Source: Candidatus Aldehydirespiratoraceae bacterium (GTDB lineage Bacteria; Actinomycetota; Acidimicrobiia; Acidimicrobiales; Aldehydirespiratoraceae). Taken from it: a stretch of DNA of 32,000 nt. Both the position numbers and the translations under genes were made by a program. Positions within the stretch are counted from its first letter, which is position 1. Each line of letters opens with the position of its first letter. The stretch is from assembly GCA_965208435.1 (NCBI GenBank), contig OZ242337.1, forward strand, positions 1,422,100-1,454,099. Direction: 5' to 3'. Positions 28,965 through 29,367 of this stretch are shown piece after piece. The notes under the pieces were generated by a model. The model saw only the letters and a list, made by a program, of their open reading frames with translations. It was not told the origin of the DNA and searched no databases.

Positions 28965-29141
28965 TCAGGTGATGGCTACTCCGACGTAGAATAGGGCGAC
29001 CAAACCGAGGCCAATTCCAACGCCCGTAAAGAACGAACCCCAGCCCCAAGGGGCCTCAAGGCTCTCCATTGGTTCCATCTGTAGCGACAACAAAGCAAAC
29101 TCCGCGTCGACAACATCCTGCGTCAATTCCATGGTGTTCAT
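28965..29141 (-). CDS. RiPP precursor peptide 2 (58 aa, ends in Thr); absent from the ORF track
   Basis: GGGAGGTGAATCG precedes the ATG. Translation: MNTMELTQDVVDAEFALLSLQMEPMESLEAPWGWGSFFTGVGIGLGLVALFYVGVAIT*. It shares a 60-nt identical block with the neighbouring precursor gene. Confidence 0.8.
   Translation of the reverse strand: MNTMELTQDVVDAEFALLSLQMEPMESLEAPWGWGSFFTGVGIGLGLVALFYVGVAIT
29028..29087 (-). repeat. 60-nt block identical to 29254-29313
   Basis: Checked base by base. It encodes SLQMEPMESLEAPWGWGSFF. Confidence 0.95.
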
Positions 29142-29187
29142 CGATTCACCTCCCTTCGAGGTTAGACGGCGATGGGATGGCTCAGGG

Positions 29188-29367
29188 TCAGGTGACCGCT
29201 ACGCCCAACGCAACGACAGCAAAGCCGATTACAATGCCGGTGGCCAGGCCCGCAAAGAACGAACCCCAGCCCCAAGGGGCCTCAAGGCTCTCCATTGGTT
29301 CCATCTGTAGCGATAGCGATGCGGTTTCAACATCGACGCTAGCGGGGGCCAAGTCAACGATAGTCAT
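29188..29367 (-). CDS. RiPP precursor peptide 1 (59 aa, ends in Thr)
   Basis: GGGGAGGTGAAA precedes the ATG at 29367. Translation: MTIVDLAPASVDVETASLSLQMEPMESLEAPWGWGSFFAGLATGIVIGFAVVALGVAVT*. The 86-aa track ORF has an implausible Cys/Arg-rich extension upstream of the SD. Confidence 0.8.
   Translation of the reverse strand: MTIVDLAPASVDVETASLSLQMEPMESLEAPWGWGSFFAGLATGIVIGFAVVALGVAVT
29254..29313 (-). repeat. 60-nt block identical to 29028-29087
   Basis: Checked base by base. Confidence 0.95.

Follow-up and report, generated by a model that had tools for sequence, protein, structure and literature searches.

The window analysed here, a 32,000-nt stretch of contig OZ242337.1 (positions 1,422,100 to 1,454,099) from a Candidatus Aldehydirespiratoraceae bacterium, carries two small tandem genes on its minus strand, namely an A-type dapA at 29188..29367 (59 aa, ending in AVT) and a B-type dapA at 28965..29141 (58 aa, ending in AIT). 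A first-pass annotation, made by a model from the letters alone, had described the pair as Thr-terminated precursor genes that diverge at both ends. Indeed, both minus-strand open reading frames (ORFs) are present: gene A (29367..29188) translates to MTIVDLAPASVDVETASLSLQMEPMESLEAPWGWGSFFAGLATGIVIGFAVVALGVAVT and gene B (29141..28965) to MNTMELTQDVVDAEFALLSLQMEPMESLEAPWGWGSFFTGVGIGLGLVALFYVGVAIT, and outside a shared 60-nt block the two differ at 43 of 105 aligned nucleotides. Each is preceded by a strong Shine-Dalgarno site that can be read off the sequence (GGGGAGGTG at 29371..29379 for A and GGGAGGTG at 29147..29154 for B, both on the minus strand), the latter as annotated earlier; the spacer between the genes, given as 47 nt, proved to be 46 nt. 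Sequence comparison makes it very probable that A and B are tandem paralogous precursors of a YcaO-containing cluster for daptides, which Ren et al. (2023) defined as a class of ribosomally synthesized peptides with post-translational modifications (RiPPs; PMC10036551), and that the docking and cleavage site in the shared block has been homogenised by gene conversion; the methyltransferase gene dapM is split by an insertion sequence (IS).

The operon runs in the order A, B, small membrane protein, ATP-binding cassette (ABC) exporter, DapP, DapB, DapM, DapD, DapC and DapY-type YcaO. We classified the genes downstream of the precursors, which likewise lie on the minus strand, by Pfam and NCBIfam scans with curated bit-score cutoffs. 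The first-pass annotation had proposed that a protein with a RiPP recognition element (RRE) at 24592-25599 and an M50-like protease serve the precursor pair, and NCBIfam bore this out by naming the two as DapB and DapP and by adding DapD, DapC and DapM. DapP, an intramembrane HExxH leader peptidase (25612..27180; NF041824, 315.7 bits against a cutoff of 300), comprises 522 aa counted from Met89 of a 610-aa ORF, its relatives also being called at 522 aa, and has a HEMAH motif in its translation. DapB, the DUF-RRE partner of the oxidative decarboxylase (24592..25599; NF041823, 161.8 bits against a cutoff of 150), shares 31% identity (E=3e-18) with SaDapB of the Streptomyces azureus azuritide cluster. 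Further along lie DapD, a class-III aminotransferase (20922..22178; NF041821, 493.9 bits against a cutoff of 450), and DapC, a predicted oxidative decarboxylase of the Fe-ADH family (19736..20995; PF00465, 60.6 bits against a cutoff of 31.3), for which NF041822 is the best match. The last gene of the operon, here as in all relatives, encodes a DapY-type YcaO protein (18588..19739; PF02624), a predicted C-terminal imidazoline-forming cyclodehydratase with 32-33% full-length identity to SaDapY (E=4e-38) and to TfDapY of Thermobifida fusca (E=2e-35); a C-terminal ...P.PLI is common to all three proteins. The exporter consists of the ABC transporter ATPase DapT1 (27926..28657; PF00005, 102 bits), in the same position as TfDapT1 and SaDapT1, and the ABC-2 permease DapT2 (27177..27923), recognised by a weak PF12730 match and by synteny. 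By these sequence matches the cluster belongs to the YcaO-containing branch of the daptide class. What the first-pass annotation had missed is that the class was already described, with the C-terminal Thr as the modification site, that the adjacent YcaO belongs to the pathway, and that the methyltransferase gene is IS-disrupted. A linaridin (cypemycin-like) assignment was dropped after NCBIfam had identified the daptide set.

Precursor B itself lies above the cutoff of NCBIfam NF041808 (daptide-type RiPP; 26.7 bits against 25), and a protein identical to it (P0001) is present in public collections. Both peptides carry a C-terminal Thr, which is invariant across 13 homologues, distant ones included. 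The predicted leader of precursor A is MTIVDLAPASVDVETASLSLQMEPMESLEAP and its predicted core WGWGSFFAGLATGIVIGFAVVALGVAVT, the predicted core of precursor B being WGWGSFFTGVGIGLGLVALFYVGVAIT; both cores are strongly hydrophobic (grand average of hydropathy, GRAVY, of 1.5-1.7) and devoid of Cys, in line with their earlier description as Cys-free sequences resembling transmembrane helices and ending in -AIT and -AVT.

The 60-nt block (29254..29313 in A and 29028..29087 in B, both on the minus strand) is identical at 60 of 60 positions and bounded by mismatches on each side, which confirms the earlier observation. It encodes SLQMEPMESLEAPWGWGSFF, with the residues S L Q M E P(-8) M(-7) E(-6) S(-5) L(-4) E(-3) A(-2) P(-1) / W1 G2 W3 G4 S5 F6 F7, and thus each copy spans a leader recognition motif, a cleavage site predicted by analogy to follow Pro31, and core residues 1-7. 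In the 13 homologues, E(-6), S(-5), L(-4), A(-2), W(+3) and F(+6) are as invariant as the terminal Thr. The published leader motif of daptides is ELExMEAP/ELExxxxP, with proteolysis after the conserved Pro; in MpaA1, processing by MpaB/C is lost on the exchanges L(-7)A and M(-4)A and is lowered by changes at E(-8), P(-5), E(-3) and P(-1) (PMC10036551). Core Trp3 is required for processing by TfDapBC (DapBC; 10.1101/2025.07.11.664356). PMESLEAP aligns to the published motif with matches at E(-6), L(-4), E(-3), A(-2) and P(-1), and the canonical EELEPLEAP is present in a distant relative (L009). By this analogy, PMESLEAP is well supported as the local form of the ELExxxxP recognition motif, and the same homology supports the earlier proposal that the block holds the recognition sequence and the leader-core junction. 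LQMEPMESLEAPWGW is the predicted candidate segment for binding by the C-terminal domain of DapB.

A protein search found 12 relatives, with wider sampling coming from metagenome contigs; scanning a genome collection with the precursor alignment returned only 2 species-level loci. The same operon with a pair of A-type and B-type genes occurs in four further lineages (L001, which is OZ220692.1, an Acidimicrobiales metagenome-assembled genome (MAG), L002, L003 and the L006 group), so that aligning the precursors of related clusters, a check the first-pass annotation had suggested, did turn up homologous small ORFs. Insertion excepted, relatives are 85-93% identical to the window at the nucleotide level from 29399 to 18583. 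A-type orthologues sit at the equivalent position in L001, L002, L003 and L006, and B-type orthologues were found in five lineages. The N-terminal part of the leader separates the two types: sequences of one type agree at 46-54 of 54 positions, those of different types at about 29-32 of 54. That of window B matches B orthologues at 46-52 of 54 positions and window A at 29 of 54. The block of window B follows a different pattern, matching window A at 60/60 and B orthologues at only 51-56/60. Since A and B types are each kept as orthologues in five lineages, the duplication is old and the identity of the block young; by sequence, A and B are old orthologous lineages.

Silent sites point in the same direction. 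Where A and B share a degenerate residue, 0 of 16 codons differ within the block and 10 of 16 outside it (Fisher p=1.2e-4). This contrast is repeated in all five lineages; over the first 16 codons of the block, only 0-2 of 12 degenerate codons distinguish A from B in each of them. Moreover, the two paralogues of one genome have private silent variants in common, namely CTG, GAG and GGC in L001 and CCG in L006. Codons 17-20 of window B (GGT TCG TTC TTT), like those of L001 B, are of A type (GGT/GGC TCG TTC/TTT TTT, encoding G-S-F-F); the remaining B orthologues have CCC or ACT followed by GAG TTC TTC (P/T-E-F-F). These patterns support recurrent gene conversion between the tandem copies as the source of silent-site identity. 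They also suggest that in this genome the latest tract was copied from A into B, with the B copy of the block as recipient, and that it changed two core residues and removed a Glu. At the protein level, selection would preserve the residues that make up the docking and cleavage motif as well as core Trp3, non-reciprocal recombination between copies 226 nt apart would erase silent differences, and the A-to-B tract would have overwritten the ancestral core residues 4-5 of B (P/T-E) with G-S.

The first-pass annotation had allowed for either gene conversion or constraint at the nucleic-acid level, and only the former part stood. A functional element constraining every base of the block, be it a hairpin or attenuator in the RNA, a terminator, or a site bound by a protein or small RNA (sRNA), might be read into the GGCCCCTTGGGGCTGGGGTT that the block carries ahead of a T-rich run and into a terminator scan that flags both copies. 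However, this count of 2 terminator-like hits lies within the shuffle expectation of 1.6 +/- 1.4, and RNA folding z-scores of about zero (0.03, 0.33 and -0.83) are unexceptional; RNA structure or a terminator in the block was rejected on these grounds. In addition, orthologues differ in silent codons within the block at frequencies of 0.175 (A) and 0.214 (B), on a par with the 0.10-0.23 of the flanks, and because of this equal rate the bases of the block are free to change between genomes. Its variants among orthologues fall on third codon positions, except for amino-acid replacements at codons 7 and 17-18. A nucleic-acid element of this kind is highly unlikely. The identity might also reflect purifying selection on the protein combined with codon bias, or a very recent duplication of the whole gene with flanks diverging under diversifying selection, given that no part of the peptide is more constrained than the block and that RiPP cores are hypervariable within clusters (PMC10036551). 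Yet if codons were chosen independently according to the usage of this genome, full identity would arise with P of about 10^-7.2, and many of the codons in common are rare ones (CTA 7%, CCT 11%, CTT 12%, CCA 14%), for which reasons codon bias was rejected as the cause. As for recent duplication, the flanks are near saturation at the silent sites of conserved residues (the 10/16 above), and the two types are orthologous across five lineages with 46-54/54 identity in the N-terminal leader. Either version is very unlikely.

That the identity arose in assembly, with a repeat collapsed or copied between the genes, would be in keeping with the metagenomic origin of the relatives and with the chimeric A-leader/B-core protein P0004, which comes from a 1.4-kb short-read contig and may be an artefact. 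Against this stand two intact window ORFs with unique flanks on a 3.8-Mb contig, as well as the independent complete chromosome OZ220692.1 (L001/L008), in which A and B are identical at 59 of 60 block positions and carry private variants of their own; the other assemblies have 52-53/60, and the signal is therefore graded rather than all-or-none. We regard an assembly artefact as extremely improbable. The same holds for a reading of the ORFs outside the RiPPs, as small membrane proteins or as class II bacteriocins of the double-glycine leader type that the ABC transporter would export and cleave, to which the helix-like C-terminal halves and the adjoining transporter genes lend some plausibility. 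The ABC ATPase, however, is a 243-aa stand-alone subunit whose Pfam matches are of ABC/AAA type only and include no peptidase family. Daptide hidden Markov models (HMMs) do match the peptides, the C-terminal Thr is invariant, and the full DapB/C/D/M/P set is co-operonic with the precursors and syntenic in relatives.

Several points nonetheless weigh against the assignment to daptides with gene conversion. Precursor A remains under the NCBIfam cutoffs, scoring 19.5 bits with the daptide_123 model (cutoff 25) and 20.8 bits with the MpaA1 model. DapC reaches 225 bits, under the NF041822 equivalog cutoff of 300, albeit with the gene being syntenic in all relatives. The local motif has P(-8) and M(-7) where the published logo has Glu and Leu, and because of this deviation the cleavage site is a prediction only. 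No sigma-70-like promoter was detected upstream of gene A by a scan that is uninformative for this phylum, and both precursors and their products are here predicted from the genes. The case for conversion draws on about five lineages with few informative sites. Over the first 48 nt all copies are nearly identical, so that no left boundary can be assigned to the latest tract, and a single homogenisation shortly before the lineages split, followed by parallel mutations, stands as a formal alternative to recurrent conversion.

With A and B as daptide precursors, a pathway can be proposed by homology to characterised clusters. In Microbacterium paraoxydans, MpaB/C, MpaD and MpaM turn the C-terminal Thr into (S)-N2,N2-dimethyl-1,2-propanediamine (Dmp; PMC10036551), and YcaO enzymes of the DapY type cyclodehydrate the amine intermediate to a methyl- or dimethyl-imidazoline (Miz/Diz; Dommaraju et al. 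2025, 10.1101/2025.07.11.664356 = PMC12670281). By the same logic, the RRE domain of DapB, and probably the protease too, would bind PMESLEAP in the leader. DapB/DapC would then oxidatively decarboxylate the C-terminal Thr to aminoacetone, DapD would transaminate this to 1,2-diaminopropane, and DapM would methylate the diamine. DapY would cyclodehydrate the monomethyl amine to dimethylimidazoline; alternatively, a second methylation would yield Dmp. Cleavage after Pro by DapP would free hydrophobic helical peptides of 28 and 27 residues starting with WGWGSFF, and the ABC-2 transporter would export them. The [M+H]+ values predicted for the products of A and B are 2717.53 and 2738.52 with Diz, 2749.56 and 2770.55 with Dmp, 2703.52 and 2724.51 with Miz, 2721.53 and 2742.52 with Dap, and 2766.50 and 2787.49 if unmodified.

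DapM is not intact in this genome, its gene being split by an IS. The 5′ part of dapM (24246..24595, minus strand; NF041820 profile positions 4-89) and the 3′ part (22171..22632, minus strand; profile positions 96-236), each including one copy of a CTAAT target site, flank a 1613-bp element at 22633..24245 on the plus strand, which contains an intact 437-aa DDE_Tnp_1_4 transposase (22754-24067). The element ends in terminal inverted repeats, CCTGAATCCACCG and CCTGGATCCACCG, that match at 12 of 13 positions, and is bordered by a 5-bp target duplication, CTAAT, at 22628-22632 and 24246-24250. In silico removal of the IS and of one CTAAT restores a 268-aa DapM ORF that passes the NF041820 cutoff (179.3 bits against 175) and is identical to the DapM of L002 at 256 of 268 positions. 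Because excision yields a passing, near-identical protein, the insertion is recent. By sequence, dapM is of daptide ancestry, with its function apparently lost in this genome. The IS lies antisense in the operon, upstream of dapD, dapC and dapY, and a polar effect that abolishes the entire modification pathway is plausible. Given the split dapM and the antisense IS ahead of these three genes, the cluster here is probably not making mature daptides. As a side possibility, should the downstream genes still be expressed, the dapM::IS allele would by analogy to in vitro data give daptides terminated by 4-methylimidazoline (Miz), a terminus so far seen only in vitro (10.1101/2025.07.11.664356).

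Between the precursors and the exporter lies a gene for a 68-aa two-helix membrane protein (28667..28873, minus strand), which returned no family match. It follows the precursors in all relatives and accompanies the orphan B gene in L004 and L005; this makes it a putative immunity or accessory protein, and a candidate immunity protein in particular.

Clusters that are otherwise near-identical vary in the precursors they hold. L010 (2348-2470) is without A. In L012, L014 and L015 (about 2560-2660), both precursors are gone and the last ~36 nt of B are left, with all enzymes kept. All that L004 (4124-4684) and L005 retain is a B gene on its own, the gene for the 68-aa membrane protein and the initial ~40 nt of the ABC ATPase. 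Function seems to be lost from this locus repeatedly, by different routes. In P0004, known from a 1.4-kb Logan contig, an A-type leader is fused at the block to a B-type core, and the protein stems either from a genuine unequal crossover or from chimeric assembly of short reads across the repeat. In L003 (10709-18118), the ABC ATPase, permease, protease and DapC are called as split or shortened ORFs; these could stem from long-read-error frameshifts or from genuine decay. It is a speculative and rather doubtful extension that the 48-60-nt recognition block acts as a dedicated recombination joint, with recurrent conversion keeping every precursor compatible with the single DapB/DapP recognition system and permitting leader/core swaps and deletions, and that the locus is a modular, rapidly turning-over producer/immune/cheater system in uncultured Acidimicrobiales. 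Possible traces of such a joint would be the P0004 chimera, the A-to-B overwrite of core residues 4-5, and the A-less, precursor-less and orphan variants.

Compared with characterised clusters, the operon is close to saDap (S. azureus azuritide) and tfDap (T. fusca), which likewise combine multiple dapA genes with T1, T2, P, B, M, D, C and Y (10.1101/2025.07.11.664356), in keeping with the YcaO (32-33%, full length) and DapB (31% to SaDapB) identities given above. The cores share a W-x-W start with SaDapA1 (WGWGSF... here, WNWAEF... there), and Trp3 recurs in TfDapA1 (GFW...); cleavage is predicted here, as in these systems, 8 residues after the start of the ELE-type motif. They differ in the leader motif (PMESLEAP here, ELExxxxP/L there), in the number of precursors (two here, four or five there), in the LanKC/LanJ pair, which is absent here, in the Acidimicrobiales-like host and in the IS-disrupted dapM. 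With Mpa daptides 1-3 of M. paraoxydans the peptides have in common the invariant C-terminal Thr, the hydrophobic helical core, a leader motif bound by the RRE of DapB (MpaB) and an HExxH intramembrane protease cutting after Pro (here predicted), as well as several divergent precursors per cluster, peptide synergy having been reported for Mpa (PMC10036551). In contrast, mpa is without YcaO and its product ends in Dmp, a Diz terminus being expected in the intact relatives of the present cluster, and the peptides match the MpaA1 model only weakly (18.8-20.8 bits against a cutoff of 40). As in precursors of the cyanobactin and prochlorosin type, the recognition sequence is constant and the cores diverge; what differs here is that the homogenised tract is only about 48-60 nt long and spans the leader-core junction, and that the leader's N-terminal half diverges as much as the core does.

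The conversion mechanism as such is unsurprising, since RiPPs are well known to join a conserved leader to a hypervariable core, and gene conversion within a cluster is well known from modular polyketide synthases (PKS), where, as proposed here, homologous DNA within a cluster is the substrate of recombination (review PMC13500794). On a limited search of the literature, we found no description of gene conversion in daptide precursors. Acidimicrobiales were not found in the supplement texts of either daptide paper, including the taxonomic table of 2025, nor were WGWGSFF and LEAPWGW found in these supplements, whose machine-read text may be incomplete.

While these findings do not overturn current understanding, they would bring an Acidimicrobiales-like lineage, known chiefly from metagenomes, into the daptide class and its recently described YcaO/imidazoline branch, and they provide two new cores that begin with WGWGSFF and could be produced heterologously. 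The comparison also documents concerted evolution of the recognition block and indicates that a RiPP recognition sequence can stay identical at the DNA level through gene conversion rather than through a function of its nucleotides, and that conversion can leak into the core and alter the product. Many independent knock-outs in close relatives, by IS insertion, precursor deletions and orphan precursors, suggest a fast, bacteriocin-like turnover.

In relatives, the cluster is bracketed by two copies of a histidine-phosphatase gene (His_Phos_1), a full one downstream of YcaO and, upstream of the precursors, a partial 3′ one of 163 aa (L002 201-692; L010 1727-2218 and 12066-12965), and RHH/Fic and PIN/RHH toxin-antitoxin genes lie nearby; the cluster looks like an island inserted at a His_Phos_1 gene. 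The window holds only the downstream copy (17830-18540, plus strand). Directly upstream of the precursors, it contains a truncated DDE_Tnp_1_4 fragment (29842-30657, plus strand), which was rejected as a copy of the dapM IS, as the similarity is at the protein level only (32% amino-acid identity over about 127 residues). An HTH_23 ORF (30373-30984, minus strand) and a G-rich repeat with a period of ~10 nt (31861-31950) are also located upstream. This appears to be IS debris in place of the flank seen in relatives, which consists of AMP-binding gene fragments and the partial His_Phos_1. Elsewhere in the window, a sugar ABC/ROK region includes a patch of low GC content at 8001-10000 (0.52, compared with about 0.64 in its surroundings) that holds a 371-aa ORF without a Pfam match and a glucosamine-6-phosphate isomerase-like gene, and dnaK and dnaJ are found at 4318-7928 on the minus strand.

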